From: Parcubacteria group bacterium
Lineage (GTDB): Bacteria > Patescibacteriota > Minisyncoccia > Moranbacterales > UBA2206
Assembly (NCBI GenBank): GCA_041659505.1
Contig: JBAZYF010000001.1
Span: 321,719 to 385,718 of the forward strand
Direction: 5' to 3'
Length of the DNA stretch: 64,000 nt
How positions within the stretch are numbered: position 1 is the stretch's first letter; every line of letters begins with the position of its first letter. The translations under genes and the position numbers were made by a program. Under the pieces are notes generated by a model. The model saw only the letters and a program-made list of their open reading frames with translations. It was not told the DNA's origin and did no database searches. Below are positions 1-52,375 of this stretch, piece after piece.

Positions 1-901
1 ATTCTTTGATGGCCTTTTCGGTAGCTTGTTCATTGCTAACTTTCCCAGCATTTTGTAACACACCCTTGCCATAATTTTTAACAAATTTATCTAATTCCGC
101 CACCCAATCAACCATACGCATTTTTTGTTTTTCTCGGGCTTTTATTTCAGCCAAATCAAAGAATGCCGAAACCATGCGGTTGAGCCGAAACAATTCGTCT
201 TCGGTAAGATAGTTTTTTGCCACTGTAACTTCAGATAATATTGGCAATACTCCAGCAAAAGTGGTCAGTCCCATAAAATCTTTTTTGGCATCGGCTCTTT
301 CGGCGATTGTTTCCGCGGCGGTGTACTGATTGGTCGCATAATGAAGTTTGTTTTGCACCACCTTAAAAAATGCAATTGATTCAGAACCATGAGGATCATA
401 ATCAATGCTCGTAGCATACAAATCCAACACCTGACGATAAAGAGCTTTTTCACTGCTTCGAATATCACGGATGCGATCAAGCAATTCTTTCCAATAATCT
501 CCCCCGCCGGTCCCCTTGAGCCTCTCATCGTCAATCACAAAACCTTTAACAATATACTCTCTTAATTTTTGCGTCGCCCAAATGCGGAATTGTGTACCGC
601 GTGATGATTTCACGCGATAGCCAACGGAAATAATTACATCAAGATTATAGTTTTTTACAAGGTAATTTTTGCCATCAGAAGCAGTTGTCGAGTATTCCTC
701 GGTAACTGAACTTTCCCCTAGCTCAGCCTCTTTGAAGATATTTTTTAGGTGCAAGCTAATATTATCGACACTGCAATCAAAAAGCTCCGCCATTTGCTTT
801 TGCGAAAGCCAAACGGTCTCGTCTTTCATCCGCACCTCAATCTTAGTCTCGCCGTCTGCGGTGTTATAGATAATTATTTGGTTTTGGATTGCTTTTTTCA
901 T
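1..901 (-). CDS. rhuM: RhuM-family virulence/fitness protein; ATG at 901, C-terminus runs past the window start
   Basis: My own minus-strand translation from ATG at 899-901 gives MKKAIQNQIIIYNTADGETKIEVRMKDETVWLSQKQMAELF...YLVKNYNLDVIISVGYRVKSSRGTQFRIWATQKLREYIVKGFVIDDERLK, which matches the RhuM family block. The frame stays open to position 1. The ORF-track entry 265..534 is an alternate frame of the same DNA. Confidence 0.8.
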   Translation of the reverse strand, partial: MKKAIQNQIIIYNTADGETKIEVRMKDETVWLSQKQMAELFDCSVDNISLHLKNIFKEAELGESSVTEEYSTTASDGKNYLVKNYNLDVIISVGYRVKSSRGTQFRIWATQKLREYIVKGFVIDDERLKGTGGGDYWKELLDRIRDIRSSEKALYRQVLDLYATSIDYDPHGSESIAFFKVVQNKLHYATNQYTAAETIAERADAKKDFMGLTTFAGVLPILSEVTVAKNYLTEDELFRLNRMVSAFFDLAEIKAREKQKMRMVDWVAELDKFVKNYGKGVLQNAGKVSNEQATEKAIKE

Positions 902-940: not shown

Positions 941-1105
941 CCATTAACTCACTTTGTCCAGAAACCGATGTCGGTGCCGAGAAGGAATACGAGAATAGCA
1001 AAAAGAATTTTTATTTTTTTATTTTCTGGATGAAGTAGTACTTGTTTATTTTTTGCAAGTTTGCGCCATTAACTTTTTTATTTAATAAGTTGATTTATTA
1101 TGTAA

Positions 1106-3793
1106 TTATCGTGCCTCAAACTCAATTTTTCTCAACTGAATCATTTCATCTTCTCTTTTTCTCTCTTCTTCCGCTTTTTCTTTGAATTTTTCAATCATTC
1201 TTAAGGCAAATTTTTTAACCCATCCTTCATTTTTATTAACATAATCTTCTAATAATTTGACTTTTTCTTTATAAGCCTCGGAAAAACCGTGTACCCCCAT
1301 AACTGTTCCCGTTGAATACATAACGGACTCGACTCTATCTAAGACTTCCTTATCGGTGGTTTTTTTCACAATTTCAAAGCAAATTTCAAACGGTGGAACA
1401 TTGACAGTTCTCAAGATATCAATTGCATTGTTAAAACTTTTTTTGTCTCCTCGATTAATAATATTTTTTAAAACATCTGCAAAAGATAAATTCATTTTTT
1501 CAATAAATTCACCTAATTCCCAATTATACACGCTCCAGTCTTTTGTCATTTTTTCGGACCATTCAGAAACATATTCAAGATACCCATTTTTTTGATCCTC
1601 ACTGATATATTTTATCAAATCATCATTGAAATGATACGGAATCGCGTTATATCGCCTGTCTTTAAATTTTTTCTTCGGATTTTCTTTATCGGCCTTCTGA
1701 ATTCTTTTTAAAAACACCTCCATCAATTGGTCGAAATATTTTTCACCAATACCTAAGAGAATATTTTGCGCGCTATGATCCAGATCACTCAATTCCACTA
1801 GCCTCTTTAAAATATAATTCCTCAAGCCATTACTCCAATTTGAGATATGCGCCATTCGCTTGCTATTCATAAAATCCAACTCCCTGACATATAAACTCAG
1901 TAATTCTTGGTTGCTTTCCATTTCTTCAATTATTAATTTCTCTATTGCAATAGGATTTTTTTCGAATATTTGCAAAAGTCCAGAAAATAAAGAGGAGTGC
2001 AATAATAATTTATTAGTTCCTTTCGCCCTCAAAAATTTATATTTTCCTTTGCCCACTATGGATTTCCTTAGTAAATCTATGTCGCTTTGCCTGACAACTT
2101 TTTTTATATCTTTTGCATCAATATACATTAAAGAAACGAATGCTGTGGAAAGCAAGTCGGATGATTTAATTTCAATTATTTTCTCGACATATCTATCCCA
2201 AAGTATAACATTGTTTTTTCGCCTAAAACCAGACAGAAAATAATCAACGAAGTTAATGAGTGGTTTTTTATTTTTAAATGCGTCATCTAATAACATTTCG
2301 GCAATCATTGGCTTTTCTTCGGCAATTCTTTGCATAAAATTGTTAAACCCCTGAAGCGTCCACCCCTCAATAACATTTTTATATTTTGCAATATTATCCA
2401 AAGTTTCAATCCATCCATTAACATTGTCGTCATTTATTTTTTTAAGAGAATCATCAATTTTATCATCCTTCTTTTTTTGCCAAGCCTCATAACCTCCTTC
2501 ATGATAAACAACATCGCCAATAAGCATTCTGTATAGCCCGTAGAATTCATCTTCTCTGATCTTTTTTGTTATGTTTTCAATCTTTTTCTTATCAATAAAT
2601 TCATCCCCTTTCGACATCCAATACAGCCTATTCTCAATTTCAAGAATAATTGGTGCTTCGGCTATAATACTGCTTTTTTTATCGAAAATTACTTTTTCAT
2701 AAAATCCTACAATATAATTCAAATCATCCGCAACAAACTTTCTTCCTTTTTCATCAATACTAGAGTGAACTCTGGAAGCGTTTTCAAGAACATTAAGTAA
2801 ACTGATTTTTTCTTTTATATCCTCACTGTGATTAAAAGTTTCCATAATTAAATTAATGGAGTCAACTCTTATCTTTTTCAGGTAATCGGTCGGAGATAAC
2901 GGACCTGATTTAAAGACCATCTTATTCGCCTCGACCATTTCTGTTCCCTCAAACTCAAATTGCAAAAACTCACCCACTACTAGATTTATAATTTCTAAAT
3001 ATTTATCCCGCTTTTTTTCTTTCCACCCCAAGATAATGTCTAAAATTTTTCTTTGTGTCGTGTAACCGATATTTTTCAGAGCGAAGTAATTATATTTGGT
3101 AAGATTTTTTATAGCATCTTTTGATTTTTCAGAAATCTTTCCGTCTATTTTTAGATCAATCAAAATCTCAAAAACATCTTCTGTCTTTATATATTTAATG
3201 TAGCTTAATAATTCAACGCATTTCAAAACAAGATCTTCATAATTCTTGCCATCATATGTTCCAAATTTAGTTTTATATTTTTTGACTCTGTTTGTTTTCT
3301 TGTTTTTAATAATATCCCTGACAATATCCAACGCAATTTCCGGAACTTTATATATAAATTCTTCCAGCAATTCTAATTTTTGAAAAATTTCATCATTATT
3401 TTTATTCTTCATTACCTCCATTTTCATTTTTAGCGACGTACTACTTAAAAATGAATTTGAAATGTCACTATCAATTTTTAGCAGTTTTGAAAAAGCCCTT
3501 TTCTTTTCTTCATGATTAAACAACTTTAAAATTTCTTCAATTTTTATAAAACGGAAAAACATAGTCCCTGCTTCTTTGCTATATTTCACAGTAAAAATAT
3601 CTCTTTCTTTTGAAACCAAGTCCATTTTTAATAAATCTTCTAGATATTTTTTTTGAAAATCTACAGTAACCCCGATAATATTTTCAATCTTTTCCATAAT
3701 TCCACTCTCGGTTTGCATATCTAAATGTCCCAATAAACTGATTATTGAGTAAAAATTATTTAATTTTTTTGGAATATTATTTTTTTTCATCAT
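1106..3793 (-). CDS. Large (895 aa) K/E/I/N-rich helical protein of unknown function; its start overlaps the stop of the upstream nuclease-like gene
   Basis: Long uninterrupted ORF. The MM start at 3788-3793 overlaps the stop of the 249-aa gene by 17 nt, suggesting translational coupling. I see no Walker, HEPN or other recognisable motif. The gene is very AT-rich compared with neighbouring housekeeping genes. Confidence 0.6.
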   Translation of the reverse strand: MMKKNNIPKKLNNFYSIISLLGHLDMQTESGIMEKIENIIGVTVDFQKKYLEDLLKMDLVSKERDIFTVKYSKEAGTMFFRFIKIEEILKLFNHEEKKRAFSKLLKIDSDISNSFLSSTSLKMKMEVMKNKNNDEIFQKLELLEEFIYKVPEIALDIVRDIIKNKKTNRVKKYKTKFGTYDGKNYEDLVLKCVELLSYIKYIKTEDVFEILIDLKIDGKISEKSKDAIKNLTKYNYFALKNIGYTTQRKILDIILGWKEKKRDKYLEIINLVVGEFLQFEFEGTEMVEANKMVFKSGPLSPTDYLKKIRVDSINLIMETFNHSEDIKEKISLLNVLENASRVHSSIDEKGRKFVADDLNYIVGFYEKVIFDKKSSIIAEAPIILEIENRLYWMSKGDEFIDKKKIENITKKIREDEFYGLYRMLIGDVVYHEGGYEAWQKKKDDKIDDSLKKINDDNVNGWIETLDNIAKYKNVIEGWTLQGFNNFMQRIAEEKPMIAEMLLDDAFKNKKPLINFVDYFLSGFRRKNNVILWDRYVEKIIEIKSSDLLSTAFVSLMYIDAKDIKKVVRQSDIDLLRKSIVGKGKYKFLRAKGTNKLLLHSSLFSGLLQIFEKNPIAIEKLIIEEMESNQELLSLYVRELDFMNSKRMAHISNWSNGLRNYILKRLVELSDLDHSAQNILLGIGEKYFDQLMEVFLKRIQKADKENPKKKFKDRRYNAIPYHFNDDLIKYISEDQKNGYLEYVSEWSEKMTKDWSVYNWELGEFIEKMNLSFADVLKNIINRGDKKSFNNAIDILRTVNVPPFEICFEIVKKTTDKEVLDRVESVMYSTGTVMGVHGFSEAYKEKVKLLEDYVNKNEGWVKKFALRMIEKFKEKAEEERKREDEMIQLRKIEFEAR

Positions 3794-4526
3794 TTTTTGA
3801 AATATATTTGAATTGTTCTTTTATATTTTCTGCTTCGTTTATCCTCTCTTGATTTAATAATTCATGTTCCTTTTTTAGCTTGTTGGTGCTTGGATCATTA
3901 ATAATTCTACCCACATCCTCTCCATTATAATTTCTTCGACTATTAACTTCTATAAATTCTCGTCTTAAGTCATTAATAATATCATCTTTACTTGCTAAAT
4001 TATTAGGCATTTGTTCGTTGCTGTACATTTTTTCCCAAATAGCAGGATACAAAGCAATGCATTTTTTTAATGATAAGCTTCCCGGTGACCACCATAAAAT
4101 TTGAGATTGACCAAGTCCCAAATTATTTATTTTTGGTATTGTGTCTAACAACCATTTATCCTGTTCTTTATATTTTGAAACTACACAATAGCAAGTTGGT
4201 CCAGTTTGACCCATTACCAACATGTCGATAATTTTGTCAGCTAGCTCTTTTTTATAAATTTTTTTTCCATACTTTCCTCTCAACTCATGACTCTTGCATT
4301 CAAACCACCAATCATACAGGACTCCATTATGTCTCCATTTTGCAGTTATATCCCTTCCGTTCTGATCTCCTGCTTGCTGAATACATGGCTCTAATATAAA
4401 CGTGCTTAATAAAAAACATTCTTTAATAAATATCTTTAAAAATTCACAAAATATTTTTTCAAACTTTGTTCCCTGTGCTTGAGAATTTTTATTTTTTTTA
4501 GTTTTAGTGAGATTACTTTTTGGCAT
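3777..4526 (-). CDS. Predicted PD-(D/E)xK (restriction-endonuclease-fold) nuclease, 249 aa
   Basis: Motif ...ILEPC...GDQNGRDITAKWRHNGVLYDWWFECKSH places an acidic residue, then D, then E-C-K at typical PD-(D/E)xK spacing. It is the first gene of an overlapping pair with the 895-aa ORF. Confidence 0.5.
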   Translation of the reverse strand: MPKSNLTKTKKNKNSQAQGTKFEKIFCEFLKIFIKECFLLSTFILEPCIQQAGDQNGRDITAKWRHNGVLYDWWFECKSHELRGKYGKKIYKKELADKIIDMLVMGQTGPTCYCVVSKYKEQDKWLLDTIPKINNLGLGQSQILWWSPGSLSLKKCIALYPAIWEKMYSNEQMPNNLASKDDIINDLRREFIEVNSRRNYNGEDVGRIINDPSTNKLKKEHELLNQERINEAENIKEQFKYISKNDEKK

Positions 4527-4549
4527 TTTTTCATGAACTTGAATATTTT

Positions 4550-4870
4550 TTATACAACCCGAATAAAAGTTCCACCCTCTCCGCTGAAGAATTGAAGGGG
4601 GTTTTTGCCATAGGCGTTGTCCAAACTTCTTCCTTTGGACTTATGTTCAACCAAAAGCATCCCCGACCAAAACAAATCAACAAAACCTTGATTTCCTCCG
4701 TATTTTTTCACATGCACTTCAAATTGCGCCAAACGCCTCCGAGTCAATCCAAGCACATTGAAAAATCCATCCCAAAAAGATTTGGCTTCCGCGTCTTCCG
4801 AGCCTTCATCTTCCCATTCTTTGGAAAATTCAATCGCTCTTGATTTTATTTCATTCCATGATAGTGGCAT
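4550..4870 (-). pseudogene. Truncated N-terminal nuclease domain of an MmeI-family (Type IIL) restriction-modification enzyme
   Basis: MPLSWNEIKSRAIEFSKEWEDEGSEDAEAKSFWDGFFNVLGLTRRRLAQFEVHVKKYGGNQGFVDLFWSGMLLVEHKSKGRSLDNAY...FFSG aligns well, as I remember it, with the MmeI N-terminus (MALSWNEIRRKAIEFSKRWED...GFVDLFWPGILLIEMKSRGKDLDKAYDQALDYFSG), including the D-x9-ExK catalytic residues. The ORF stops about 105 aa in, with no helicase-like or methyltransferase part downstream. The likely true start is the internal ATG at 4870, not the ORF-track start. Confidence 0.5.
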
Positions 4871-4880
4871 AAAATTATTC

Positions 4881-5060
4881 TTATTTCTTCCAATCCTTAA
4901 CCAATACCCCTCCCCGAACACGTTTCACTACGACCTTTTGTTTGTCCTTCCAGCCAAGCTCGCGGACGACTTCGATGGGCAGAGTGAGACCGATGGATTT
5001 TCCGCCACCGGATTTGGTTAATTTTCTGATATTACTTTCTTCTGCTTTTCGCCTTGGCAT
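4881..5060 (-). CDS. AbrB/MazE/SpoVT-family small DNA-binding protein (59 aa), antitoxin-like
   Basis: Not in the ORF track because it is under 60 aa. My translation is MPRRKAEESNIRKLTKSGGGKSIGLTLPIEVVRELGWKDKQKVVVKRVRGGVLVKDWKK. The segment KLTKSGGG-SIGLTLPIEVVRELGW is the AbrB/MazE swapped-hairpin signature. Confidence 0.5.
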   Translation of the reverse strand: MPRRKAEESNIRKLTKSGGGKSIGLTLPIEVVRELGWKDKQKVVVKRVRGGVLVKDWKK

Positions 5061-5063
5061 ATG

Positions 5064-5100
5064 TTTTGATTTATTACTGAATTAGTTCCTGAATTTATCC
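5064..5100 (-). promoter_or_regulatory. Shared upstream motif (copy 2), directly 5' of the AbrB-like gene start
   Basis: TTATTACTGAATTAGTTCCTGAATTTATCCTAA. The first 13 nt are identical to copy 1. Confidence 0.4.
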
Positions 5101-5271
5101 TAATTCTACAACAAATCATAGCTTTAGTAAAACAGGCTTTTTCACCAAAAAACCCGCGAATGAGCGGGGTGCTTTAAATTGCTTGGTAATAATTTAGTAA
5201 AACAAAGGTCGCCTTCGCGTACCTTCTGGCGGACTGCGTCACGCCGAAGGTCCGCTACGGCGAATCAATAG

Positions 5272-5358
5272 CGGAAGGAGAGGGATTTGAACCCTCGATG
5301 CCCGTTAAGGCATGCCGCATTTCGAGTGCGGTACTTTCAACCACTCAGCCATCCTTCC
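5272..5358 (-). tRNA. tRNA-Ser(CGA), long variable arm
   Basis: Reverse complement is GGAAGGATGGCTGAGTGGTTGAAAGTACCGCACTCGAAATGCGGC...CGAGGGTTCAAATCCCTCTCCTTCCG. The cloverleaf has a 7-bp acceptor stem, anticodon loop CTCGAAA and an extended variable arm. Confidence 0.8.
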
Positions 5359-5384
5359 AAGACTATCCTGAACTGAAAATTTTG

Positions 5385-5458
5385 TGTTCTCAGGGGGGTT
5401 CGAACCTCCGACCTCAGGTTCCGGAAACCTGCGCTCTATCCAACTGAGCTATGAGAAC
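5385..5458 (-). tRNA. tRNA-Arg(CCG)
   Basis: Reverse complement is GTTCTCATAGCTCAGTTGGATAGAGCGCAGGTTTCCGGAACCTGAGGTCGGAGGTTCGAACCCCCCTGAGAACA, with anticodon loop TTCCGGA. There is one A-C mismatch in the T stem. Confidence 0.7.
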
Positions 5459-5471
5459 TGAAAAACTTTTG

Positions 5472-5544
5472 TGGACTTGAGGAGAGTCGAACTCCTGACC
5501 CCTACAATGCGAATGTAGTGCTCTACCAACTGAGCTACAAGCCC
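5472..5544 (-). tRNA. tRNA-Ala(CGC)
   Basis: Reverse complement is GGGCTTGTAGCTCAGTTGGTAGAGCACTACATTCGCATTGTAGGGGTCAGGAGTTCGACTCTCCTCAAGTCCA. The G3-U70 Ala identity pair is present and the anticodon loop is TTCGCAT. Confidence 0.8.
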
Positions 5545-49321: not shown

Positions 49322-50068
49322 TTATTTCGCGATAAAAATTTTGTAGATAGGATCATCTAAAAACTTCCGCCAGAAATTTTCCCCGTATTTCCGAATCCCC
49401 TCATTAGATACAAAGCACGGAAGCCATTCAACAGAAAACCCGATTTTTTCCAGGACTTCCTGGTAAGTTTTTTCACTCCAATAGATATCATCGAAGTCAA
49501 GAAATTTACTACCACCAAAATCAGATAGAGAAACATTGGACGGCTCGCCTTCTCGGCCAGTTGGTGATGAAATTCTTACGCCATAACCATCGTAGTCAGA
49601 GAAAGGAACGACGACCGCCAAAAATTCACCACCGGACTTGAGTACTTTCTTGACGTTGGAAAACAATTTTTCCAGCATTGCTCGTTCCGTACAGTAATGT
49701 ACCGATAAAATTGCCGTGACCAAATCGAATTTTCCCAAATCGCTCAAGTCATCAATAGCATTTCTGATTAAATATTTGATGGGTTCGTAAGAATCAATTT
49801 CCCGTGCTGTAATAATTTCTTTTTCAGAAATATCAATGCCTACAACTCTCCGCGCTCCGCATGAAAGTGCTAGACGACTGGAATTGCCCATGCCACAACC
49901 AACATCCAATACTCTCTTTCCAGAAAGATCGCCTAAATGCTTAACCAACGATGGCTGGAGAGTTAACTCTCGTAGTTCTCGTCTCGAAGCCTTGGCATAT
50001 TCATTTGCATTGGCATCATACATCACGGCAGTATCTGCAAACATCTTGTCCTGATTAATTTTTGACAT
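49322..50068 (-). CDS. Class I SAM-dependent methyltransferase
   Basis: Motif I VLDVGCGMGNSS. Confidence 0.65.
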   Translation of the reverse strand: MSKINQDKMFADTAVMYDANANEYAKASRRELRELTLQPSLVKHLGDLSGKRVLDVGCGMGNSSRLALSCGARRVVGIDISEKEIITAREIDSYEPIKYLIRNAIDDLSDLGKFDLVTAILSVHYCTERAMLEKLFSNVKKVLKSGGEFLAVVVPFSDYDGYGVRISSPTGREGEPSNVSLSDFGGSKFLDFDDIYWSEKTYQEVLEKIGFSVEWLPCFVSNEGIRKYGENFWRKFLDDPIYKIFIAK

Positions 50069-50269
50069 ATTATTTATTCCTTTTTTTAATGTGCAAATTT
50101 AATTTTCCCTCCATCTCAAGCCTCAAAACAATTTTGAAACTTGGGAAAAGGAGGCGAGCATAGTGCGATGATACGCGTGCTCGCCTTTCCTACAATAAAG
50201 AACGATTTAGGAGAATTAAGAGATATCTTCCTCAAGGATTATCTCTTGTTTTACCGGCTTAGATCTGTT

Positions 50270-50778
50270 TTATTGATGTGGAACTTCCAAATGCCAGTTG
50301 CCATTTTTAAAGCCATCATATTTTTGGTTAAACTTATCACCAAAAATCAGGGGCTTAATACTTTCCCAGAATTTCAAAAGTCTGGTCAAGCCCGATGAAT
50401 CATATTCAGCATAGCGATTTATTTGTATCATCATAAATAAATTTTCACGCTCTACACCATAATAAACCCAGAGTCTAACGCACCCGTCTTTCGTAGTGGT
50501 CGACATGCAATGGAAAGAACCATGGTACTTGTCAAAGTCATCTGAAGAAATCCATCCAAGCTTGCAAAAAACATTCTTTGCTTCTTCCTTCCTGTCATTG
50601 TCTTTCCATAGATTAATCAAGTTGTTACAGAATTCAATGCACTCCTCATCGGAATTCAACATTTGAAATGCTTTGCTGATAGGAATGCGACTTCTATTAA
50701 TAGTATCGTGAAAATAGAAAATAGCCACTTTCTCCCGATCATGAAAAGCTTTTTCGCCGATTATGATAGTATTCAATA
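50270..50778 (-). CDS. Hypothetical protein (169 aa)
   Basis: An ATG at 50778 (MSDILNTIIIGEK...) is preceded by AGGAGA, so I chose it over the track's 243-aa call. Confidence 0.4.
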
Positions 50779-51124
50779 TATCGCTCATTACTATTCTCCT
50801 TGTTTTAAAGGTACATTTTTTTGTCTCCCCGAGAATCCATTTCTCAGCTTGACTCCGGAGTATAGCACGTCTATTGTTTATTGTCAACAGTAATCTTGCG
50901 ACAATATTGACATAAGTTTTAAACTGATGTATAATTAAGCCAGGATAAGGGATTTTTGGAATTTGGTCAGTTTGAGATTGACAGAAATCGATAGTGGACA
51001 TTTTGCGGACAGTCTCTACGAATTACGAATTTGTACGAATATACGAATGTAAAAATAACCCCCATGTGACTAGTTTTAGTTATATTTTAGTCAAACTTTA
51101 ATATAACTTGACTATAGTTTTAGT

Positions 51125-52375
51125 TTGATATATACTATAGTCATAATTGTTAACTTATTCATTTTTATGCTCTACAAAAGAAAAATTAACGATGAAATCC
51201 TAAAATTCCTTGATTTAGAGGAAATAATTGTTTTGCATGGCGCCCGGCAAGTTGGTAAGACGCATATTTTACTGTGGCTGGAAGATTATCTGAAAAGCAA
51301 AGGAGAGGATGTATATTACATAGATTTGGAAGATTCGCGGTATAAAAAGCTACTAGACCTAGGAACCGCTGAATTTATCACCCACCTGAAGGAGGAGGGA
51401 CATTTCCCGAAAGAGAGCAAAAAAACTTTTGTATTTATTGATGAAATTCAGTATCTGGACAATCCTTCTGAGTTTTTGAAACTGATTGCCGATCATCACA
51501 AAAATATCAAGTTGATCGTGTCGGGATCTTCCAGCTTTGAGATAAAAAGCAAATTCAAAGATTCGCTTGTCGGACGAACGATTAATTTTGAAATTTTTAA
51601 CCTATCTTTTGAGGAATACTTAATGTTCAAAAAATACACCTATACTCCAAGTAAAAAAACAACAGCGCTAAAGCAAGCCGAATTAAGAGCTCTCTACAGA
51701 GAATTCGTTTTGTTTGGCGGCTATCCAAAAGTGGCACTGATTGACAATATTGAATTAAAAGAAAAGCGCTTGCAGCAAATCATTGATACCTACATCAGAA
51801 AAGATATCAAAGAATTAGCCAACATCGATAATATTGAAAGTTTCAACAAATTATTGGAGGTTTTGGCATCGCAAAGCGGTCAATTGGTTAATAGCAAAGA
51901 ATTAGCCAACACTTGCAAGCTATCCGCAATAACGATTGAAAAATATTTATTCATTCTCGAACAAACCTACATAATAAAATTAGTCAGGCCCTATAATAAA
52001 AACATTCGCAGCGAACTTTCTAAGATGCCAAAAGTATTCTTTTATGATTCTGGATTGATGCAGATGCTTTGGCTCAAAAGTTTGCAAAAAGAGCTTATTG
52101 GCAATGTTTTTGAAACTAGTATTTTCAGTGAACTCGTGAAAAAATATGGGAGAGATAAGGTTTATTATTGGCGGACAAAAGATAAAAAAGAAATTGATTT
52201 TATCGCTATTCCCAAAAATGAAATTGTTCCCATCGAAGTTAAAATTAATTTTAACAAAGCTAATCTATCGGCCATAAACTATTTTTTAGAAAATTATAAA
52301 CTGAGCAAATATCAAATAATTGGTCTTGATGGATATGAACAAAGAAAGGGCTGGGTTTATCCCTGGGAGATTTAA
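51125..52375 (+). CDS. AAA+ ATPase of the DUF4143 / AAA_14 type (COG1373-like)
   Basis: Walker A HGARQVGKTH, Walker B FVFIDEIQ and a C-terminal DUF4143-like block. The true start is probably internal. Confidence 0.6.
   Translation: MIYTIVIIVNLFIFMLYKRKINDEILKFLDLEEIIVLHGARQVGKTHILLWLEDYLKSKGEDVYYIDLEDSRYKKLLDLGTAEFITHLKEEGHFPKESKKTFVFIDEIQYLDNPSEFLKLIADHHKNIKLIVSGSSSFEIKSKFKDSLVGRTINFEIFNLSFEEYLMFKKYTYTPSKKTTALKQAELRALYREFVLFGGYPKVALIDNIELKEKRLQQIIDTYIRKDIKELANIDNIESFNKLLEVLASQSGQLVNSKELANTCKLSAITIEKYLFILEQTYIIKLVRPYNKNIRSELSKMPKVFFYDSGLMQMLWLKSLQKELIGNVFETSIFSELVKKYGRDKVYYWRTKDKKEIDFIAIPKNEIVPIEVKINFNKANLSAINYFLENYKLSKYQIIGLDGYEQRKGWVYPWEI

Follow-up and report, generated by a model that had tools for sequence, protein, structure and literature searches.

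Organization of the locus

The subject of this analysis is a two-gene module of a Parcubacteria group bacterium, situated near one edge of a window of 64,000 nucleotides (nt; contig JBAZYF010000001.1, positions 321,719 to 385,718), which is the whole stretch of DNA that was analyzed and to which all positions without a locus label refer. The module consists of a gene coding for a protein of 249 amino acids (aa; 3777..4526, minus strand), followed by a gene coding for a protein of 895 aa that begins with two methionines (MM; 1106..3793, minus strand). The first of these, considered here as the effector gene, is predicted from the list of open reading frames (ORFs), structure modeling with AlphaFold2 (AF2), and residue conservation to encode a Mrr/FokI-like PD-(D/E)xK nuclease; the second, taken from the same ORF list, is modeled as a solenoid of HEAT-type repeats, as described below. 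From the ATGATG at which the large gene starts to the nuclease stop, the two genes overlap by 17 nt (3777..3793, minus strand; ATGATGAAAAAAAATAA), which suggests translational coupling. Public gene callers use the second ATG, resulting in a large protein of 894 aa and an overlap of 14 nt. In related loci, the effector gene and the solenoid gene are separated by overlaps or gaps ranging from -14 to +29 nt. A first-pass annotation, made from the sequence without database searches, had reported both ORFs, their coordinates, and the 17-nt overlap, all of which were found as given; the strand was absent from it, and is the minus strand for both ORFs. These ORFs are real genes and not chance products, because 895 codons are very unlikely in DNA with a GC content of 29% and because homologues were retrieved down to E 1e-218.

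The predicted nuclease

The 249-aa protein is predicted to be a DNase-type nuclease of the PD-(D/E)xK class, as indicated by both its modeled fold and its conserved residues. The first-pass annotation had drawn the same assignment from the motifs GRDITAKW and WWFECKSH, which are located at residues 57-64 and 73-80, respectively, and had made it hinge on the presence of the restriction fold. Indeed, the AF2 model (predicted local distance difference test (pLDDT) score of 84.3, with pLDDT >90 in the core, and predicted template modeling (pTM) score of 0.76) displayed the alpha-beta-beta-beta-alpha-beta core of this fold, composed of helix 13-37, strands 45-49, 60-66, and 69-78, helix 92-104, and strand 112-117. 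In this model, E23 (codon 4458-4460) lies in helix 1, D59 (codon 4350-4352) starts strand 2, E76-x-K78 (codons 4299-4301 and 4293-4295, respectively) ends strand 3, and K98 lies in helix 2. These E/D/ExK residues are conserved among the 20-23 aligned relatives, with E76, K78, and K98 being invariant and E23 and D59 being at least 90% conserved. Fold and E...D...ExK arrangement match those of nucleases with Mrr/FokI-type cleavage domains (AF1548, LlaBIII, FokI, BspD6I, and MspJI), although the sequence identity is only 10-14% and, unlike those enzymes, the 249-aa protein is attached to a HEAT solenoid and not to a methyltransferase, helicase, or DNA-recognition domain.

Membership of named systems was tested against the models of PADLOC-DB v2, NCBIfam 20, and Pfam 2025. 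The 249-aa protein gave zero matches in Pfam (E<=1), NCBIfam, PADLOC, and PHROGs, and thus none to Pfam Mrr_cat. Similarly, it failed the hidden Markov model (HMM) of Pfam DUF4365 (PF14280; DREN nuclease), whereas the corresponding partner proteins of three related loci (L006, L009, and L020) did match; between the 249-aa protein and DUF4365-positive partners a weak profile relation was found (hhalign 54% probability, E 1.3e-4). When 1.84 billion representatives were scanned in full with HMMER, 78 relatives of the 249-aa nuclease were retrieved. Among them, the 249-type domain constitutes the N-terminal 190 aa, approximately, of NACHT and nSTAND5 proteins, which are STAND NTPases, and of TPR plus PIN-TPR-GreABC proteins, with lengths of 836-1565 aa (P0021, P0025, P0026, P0030, P0032, P0034, and P0041). 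Since it heads such proteins, this domain is already an effector head in recognized conflict or immunity architectures. Judged from these sequence relationships, the 249-type nuclease domain would represent an unnamed effector-domain family that is common to several immune architectures.

The solenoid protein and its adaptor domain

The 895-aa protein is predicted to be a HEAT-type alpha-solenoid without enzymatic signature. Its AF2 model (pLDDT 82.6; pTM 0.66) is all-alpha and forms a solenoid that spans residues ~90-895, in agreement with the helical nature ascribed to this protein beforehand, and the absence of NTPase, HEPN, TIR, and SIR2 motifs, likewise claimed beforehand, was borne out by the lack of such matches in Pfam, PADLOC, and NCBIfam. 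The conserved core (residues ~128-895; 1106..3412, minus strand), which is the presumed sensor or regulator, contains two beta-hairpins (172-181 and 280-298), a conserved C-terminal motif (TG-V-GE-G-F; 829-836), and a long terminal helix (858-894). The fold of HEAT-repeat solenoids has been described mostly for cargo and scaffold proteins of eukaryotes. No family match of the 895-aa protein was found in Pfam, NCBIfam, PADLOC, or PHROGs, and seven solenoid variants gave 0 significant HMM matches, the best being PDC-M23A (E 0.014). Profile searches of PDB sequences with two alignments (A4 and A2) returned chance-level matches only, and the solenoid had no PDB sequence relatives. Homologues of the solenoid carry the RefSeq label 'hypothetical protein'.

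The N-terminal part of the large protein holds a putative adaptor domain (residues ~9-85; 3539..3769, minus strand; hhalign), which resembles a winged helix-turn-helix (wHTH) domain by its sequence pattern only. In the window, this adaptor is homologous to the C-terminal 75 aa, approximately, of effectors of the HNH, DUF4365, and 442-aa classes encoded by related loci (hhalign 98.2%, E 4.6e-14). A weak HTH_Crp_2 match was found in the related locus L008. In L071, the adaptor is encoded by a free-standing 98-aa ORF (974-1270) between a 249-type nuclease gene (P0014) and the solenoid start. The latter locus is a short metagenomic contig, in which effector, adaptor, and solenoid are split in a third way or, possibly, by a frameshift artifact. 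From these comparisons, the adaptor of about 75 aa appears to move across the gene boundary, being the effector C-terminus elsewhere, the solenoid N-terminus in the window, and a separate ORF in L071.

Family census and exchange of effectors

Direct homologues are rare, with 10 matches in an index of 5.8 billion proteins, and 55 related loci were retrieved when GTDB, at one genome for each species, was scanned by pattern. Their hosts are mostly Patescibacteria, but also Bdellovibrionales, Nitrospirae, Alpha-, Gamma-, and Deltaproteobacteria, Firmicutes, Bacteroidota, Anaerolineae, Promethearchaeota, and Micrarchaeota. Mobile records are represented by one IMG/VR contig (L067) and two PLSDB plasmid records from cultured strains. 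The short solenoids (746-871 aa; about 30 loci) each have a co-directional upstream gene coding for 220-453 aa, at the spacing of -14 to +29 nt, whereas the long solenoids (948-1061 aa; about 20 loci) each carry, in place of such a gene, about 230-320 aa of additional N-terminal domain. The linkage between partner and solenoid is thus obligate, as a coupled gene or a fusion was present in every locus recovered. Both arrangements are connected by a fusion of the Rosetta-stone type, as the N-terminus of the single-chain L031 protein (1061 aa) aligns with the whole of the 319-aa protein encoded upstream of the solenoid in L008, at 52% identity.

The partners belong to several classes. RelA_SpoT domains are fused to the solenoid in 15 loci, whereas DUF4365 or DUF4365-like partners are encoded by a separate gene in 10-11 loci and fused in five loci. 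PIN_12 partners (nine loci and two plasmid loci) and HNH partners (five loci) are encoded by separate genes, as is the 249-type restriction endonuclease (REase), which was found in the window, L001, L010, and the short contigs with P0002 and P0014. Two further classes of separate genes code for partners of 442-453 aa (three loci; L003:6683-8011, L013:2789-4141, and L040:4644-6005) and of 268 aa (one locus; L036:5186-5992). Neither of these had a family match or any profile similarity to the other effectors, and both are candidates for new toxin folds. The fused RelA_SpoT domains retain every synthetase motif, their nearest solved relatives being RelP and RelQ (E 1e-6), which are small alarmone synthetases with housekeeping roles. 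In one of the RelA/SpoT-fused sister proteins (P0005), residues 8-329 match phrog_9640 (PHROG of unknown function, 365-position profile; E 1.3e-23), a span that exceeds the Pfam RelA_SpoT domain. By sequence comparison, this match suggests that phage-encoded relatives of the RelA/SpoT effector together with the first helices exist.

Effectors differ even between closely related cores. This is the case for L015 (HNH) and L017 (RelA), with cores that are 66% identical, for L019 (HNH) and L020 (DUF4365; 69%), for L036 (unknown class) and L055 (PIN; 60%), and for the window (REase) and L005 (RelA; 51%). Conversely, the same nuclease type accompanies distant solenoids, that of the window being 26% identical to that of L001 (BLASTP) and about 28% identical to that of L010 (P0009). 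These identities indicate that the effector class does not follow the solenoid phylogeny, as would result from cassette-like exchange. Gene fusion, mobile adaptor, effector swapping, and neighborhood together indicate that partner and solenoid form one unit.

The two modules of cultured strains are both of the PIN type. One is carried by Legionella adelaidensis NCTC12735 (L072:4308-7729, NZ_LR134418.1; WP_058461130.1 and WP_058461131.1), beside a site-specific integrase gene, and the other by plasmid pPg_05 of Pseudanabaena galeata CCNP1313 (L073:4248-7699, NZ_CP112879.1; WP_281010097.1 and WP_281010098.1). Integrase genes flank L001 as well as L072.

Genomic neighborhood

Across the loci, restriction-modification (R-M) genes are prominent neighbors. 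When the 133 ORFs that are nearest neighbors in 47 loci are considered, the most frequent Pfam families all concern R-M, namely N6_N4_Mtase (7), ResIII (6), Eco57I (5), N6_Mtase (4), SWI2_SNF2 (4), T1RH-like_C (3), Methylase_S (3), HSDR_N (3), TaqI_C (3), and MmeI_Mtase (3). Frequently, the module forms the last cistron, following a type I, IIG, or III R-M gene.

In the window, the module lies within a tract of low GC content (950..4560; GC 0.25-0.34 versus about 0.42 across the remaining window), which bounds an acquired cassette. The GC content of this cassette is 29%, compared with 42% for the genome; the cassette is therefore foreign DNA that was acquired horizontally. On the minus strand, the gene order is tRNA-Ala/Arg/Ser, a MazE/AbrB-like ORF, an MmeI_N fragment, the nuclease gene, the 895-aa gene, and a RhuM gene. 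The MmeI_N fragment, directly upstream of the cassette (4550..4921, minus strand), is a truncated N-terminal part of an MmeI-type (type IIG) R-M gene (Pfam MmeI_N, 7.9e-16; PADLOC REase_MTase_IIG, 3.4e-18) that covers profile positions 2-89 only. This ORF stops after 123 aa and does not encode a complete polypeptide with nuclease, helicase-like, methyltransferase, and target-recognition domains. The fragment adjoins the cassette and has a host-like GC content. Intact Eco57I/MmeI-type genes, with overlapping stop and start codons, were found directly 5' of the module in L013 (141-2801) and L015 (2184-5333). This pattern suggests either an insertion into a resident R-M gene in the case of the window or a recurrent operon of R-M gene and module. 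Further upstream, the 59-aa ORF of the MazE/AbrB (SpoVT-AbrB) family (4881..5060, minus strand; Pfam PF04014, 7.3e-06) possibly heads the transcription unit as its first cistron; scans for promoters and terminators performed at chance level, and a promoter-like site at 5131-5103 was no better than chance. A cluster of tRNA-Ala, tRNA-Arg, and tRNA-Ser genes is located at the island border (5271..5544, minus strand; ARAGORN), and the gene downstream of the module (1..901, minus strand), which extends past the window edge, belongs to the RhuM family (Pfam Virulence_RhuM, 2.9e-99). The first-pass annotation had placed the pair in a defense-type island. Such an island is only partly visible, as the locus lies at the window edge; its visible features are the low-GC tract, the MmeI_N fragment, the MazE/AbrB-like ORF, RhuM, and the tRNA genes.

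An imperfect direct repeat of 26 nt, with copies that are 85% identical (TTTATTACTGAATT..), was observed at 907-932 and 5070-5095, directly preceding the start codons of RhuM (901) and the MazE/AbrB-like ORF (5060), respectively, so that both copies flank a module segment of 4.1 kb. This repeat may serve the AbrB-like protein as a common operator or be the scar of a recombination event. A search for flanking att-like repeats retrieved only this imperfect repeat upstream of two start codons, which is unconvincing as an att site. A second decrease in GC content was observed in the 2-kb composition profile of the window at 50001-52000 (0.349 versus about 0.42), which may mark another foreign insert.

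Comparison with known defense systems

DSR2 appears to be the best mechanistic analogue of the module. This protein combines, in this order, SIR2, an HTH domain, a helix bundle, HEAT repeats, and a C-terminal domain, and the cavity between the last two binds a phage tail tube protein, which activates the enzyme (PMC11263360). Like DSR2 of Bacillus subtilis, the module would have an N-terminal toxic enzyme, a small domain of putative HTH type, and a long helical or HEAT region; it also lacks an NTPase and occurs in a defense-island context. In the window, the HEAT solenoid was confirmed and the adaptor was present, although the fold of the latter was modeled at low confidence. No SIR2 domain was found in either window protein (Pfam, PADLOC, and NCBIfam), and the helical region gave no homology to DSR2 with PADLOC or PDB sequence models.

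A second likeness concerns CapRel, a fused toxSAS toxin-antitoxin protein that senses phage capsid and is a precedent for a fused RelA/SpoT enzyme under the control of a sensing domain in the same chain. In about 15 sister loci, a single polypeptide joins a RelA/SpoT synthetase, its catalytic motifs intact, to the regulatory partner, in line with the logic of an autoinhibited enzyme with a sensing domain. However, this domain is confined to 15 sister loci, as the window proteins are without RelA_SpoT domain (Pfam), and the partner in CapRel is a small C-terminal domain instead of a HEAT solenoid of 750 aa. The module differs from Avs and NLR-like STAND proteins in that neither window protein has a STAND domain or other NTPase, the sensor consisting of HEAT and not TPR repeats. 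Lastly, DUF4365 effectors, as in the short pAgo system SPARDA (DUF4365/DREN-APAZ), partner the solenoid in 10-16 sister loci. DUF4365 is the validated collateral DNase effector of SPARDA and remains inactive until the sensor fires (PMC10810196, PMC12205087). The module differs from SPARDA by being without Argonaute or APAZ, and the window nuclease is not a member of Pfam DUF4365.

Proposed function and alternative explanations

The overall reading of the first-pass annotation, namely a nuclease with a partner of unknown function as a candidate defense pair, is thus supported and can be extended. It is likely that the module is a defense or conflict module composed of an effector and a regulatory solenoid. 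With less assurance, yet as the somewhat favored interpretation, the two genes would form one unit of an unnamed, horizontally mobile immune module of the abortive-infection type, in which effector, adaptor, and HEAT solenoid cooperate. Coupled translation would produce both proteins at a fixed ratio, and the solenoid of about 750 aa would bind the nuclease through the adaptor and hold it inactive. An infection cue would then bind the solenoid, the likeliest being a phage protein in the concave HEAT face, as in DSR2; that the HEAT repeats directly sense a phage protein is a tentative proposal, based on this analogy. Binding of the cue would free or assemble the effector, so that DNA is degraded, phage replication is stopped, and the cell is sacrificed. 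Sister loci with PIN, HNH, DUF4365, or RelA/SpoT effectors may reach the same end via RNA, DNA, or nucleotide or tRNA targets.

Several observations weigh against this interpretation. The sensor role of the solenoid is drawn by analogy, as its structural likeness is to generic HEAT repeats only (TM scores of 0.2-0.34) and it has no detectable sequence similarity or specific structural similarity to DSR2 or any characterized defense protein. In addition, the alignments behind the AF2 models were shallow, with 10 and 23 sequences, and modeling of the adaptor was poor (pLDDT 31-55), as was that of residues 1-80 as a whole, so that its fold is tentative. Furthermore, most solenoid loci derive from metagenome-assembled genomes, and about half of the loci have nearest neighbors that are not related to defense.

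An alternative that is unlikely, but has several features of the module in its favor, is a plain type II toxin-antitoxin (TA) system for addiction or stabilization, with the upstream enzyme as toxin and the HEAT protein as a hyperpromiscuous antitoxin without phage sensing. Indeed, the module consists of two tightly coupled cistrons, a single conserved protein is paired with toxins of many unrelated classes, plasmids and integrative elements carry some members, and RelA/SpoT, PIN, and HNH domains are classic TA toxins. Antitoxin domains of similar promiscuity are known from NetFlax (PMC10440598). However, 750 aa far exceeds the size needed for neutralization, and the approximately 20 covalent fusions cannot be reconciled with an antitoxin that is labile and degraded on its own, unless the protein is CapRel-like and, hence, already a sensor. 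Also, the toxin-first order is less usual among type II TA systems, and R-M neighbors are strongly enriched. These same neighbors could indicate that the solenoid guards them, by monitoring the adjacent restriction enzyme or its inhibition by phage anti-restriction and firing when R-M is disabled, comparable to the guarding of EcoprrI by PrrC. The module is often the last co-directional cistron, preceded by an Eco57I/MmeI-type gene in L013 and L015 (with stop/start overlap), by ResIII in L021, and by HsdR in L005, L008, L038, and L039, and the MmeI_N fragment adjoins the module of the window. Such a guard function is nevertheless improbable, as the adjacent R-M types vary (I, IIG, III, and AlwI-type II), which is hard to fit to a single conserved solenoid, many loci lack an R-M gene next to the module (L001, L009, L010, L072, and L073), and the R-M gene of the window is truncated while its module is intact; plain clustering in defense islands accounts equally well for the pattern.

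The resemblance of the effector to the Mrr/FokI/MspJI cleavage domains of type IIS, type IV, and type ISP enzymes, as well as the wHTH-like adaptor with its weak HTH_Crp_2 match in L008, could point to a type IV-like restriction system, in which DNA that is foreign or modified would be recognized by adaptor and solenoid and cut directly by the nuclease, without killing of the cell. This is very improbable, since solenoids that are nearly identical are combined with PIN, of RNase-type fold, or with RelA/SpoT, a pyrophosphokinase, for which DNA cleavage cannot account, and no domain that reads DNA modifications was detected; pure type IV restriction was rejected, given these PIN and RelA/SpoT effectors of sister loci. 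Equally little credence can be given to a non-immune role, either as a housekeeping complex for nucleic-acid processing or scaffolding or as a decaying remnant. HEAT solenoids are generic scaffolds and the flanking MmeI gene is degraded, but both ORFs are intact with every catalytic residue conserved, and a patchy spread across phyla, foreign GC content, exchange of effectors, and links to R-M genes as well as integrases and plasmids are atypical of housekeeping genes. Candidates that were rejected as well are a polymorphic toxin or secreted effector, as the toxins are N-terminal or upstream, secretion markers are lacking, and the context is that of R-M, and an Avs/NLR system, as there is no NTPase.

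Significance

The logic of a swappable effector combined with a repeat sensor is already well known, and the module, a candidate with good support for a new modular immune family, comes close in concept to DSR2, CapRel, and Avs. The solenoid family, its adaptor, and the breadth of its effectors appear to be undescribed; full-text literature searches found no description of the solenoid family. A more far-reaching proposal, which is possible but doubtful, is that the module represents the founding example of a widespread family of NTPase-free innate-immune sensors that is enriched in the candidate phyla radiation (CPR)/Patescibacteria. Its HEAT solenoid would directly recognize a phage component or the disabling of R-M and would control at least seven unrelated killing enzymes through a portable adaptor, with the flexibility of Avs and CBASS but without nucleotide switch or second messenger. 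The cultured carriers L. adelaidensis NCTC12735 and P. galeata CCNP1313 make the hypothesis of an immune module directly testable. The module also defines two reusable parts, namely a portable adaptor that couples effector to solenoid and a PD-(D/E)xK effector that is common to NACHT, nSTAND5, and TPR immune proteins. The anti-phage defenses of CPR/Patescibacteria seem to be less well characterized. If the immune function of the module is confirmed, a plain HEAT scaffold, without ATPase or signaling nucleotide, would be shown to gate many toxic enzymes, and a new family, concentrated in the ultra-small CPR/Patescibacteria, would be added to the bacterial immune repertoire.

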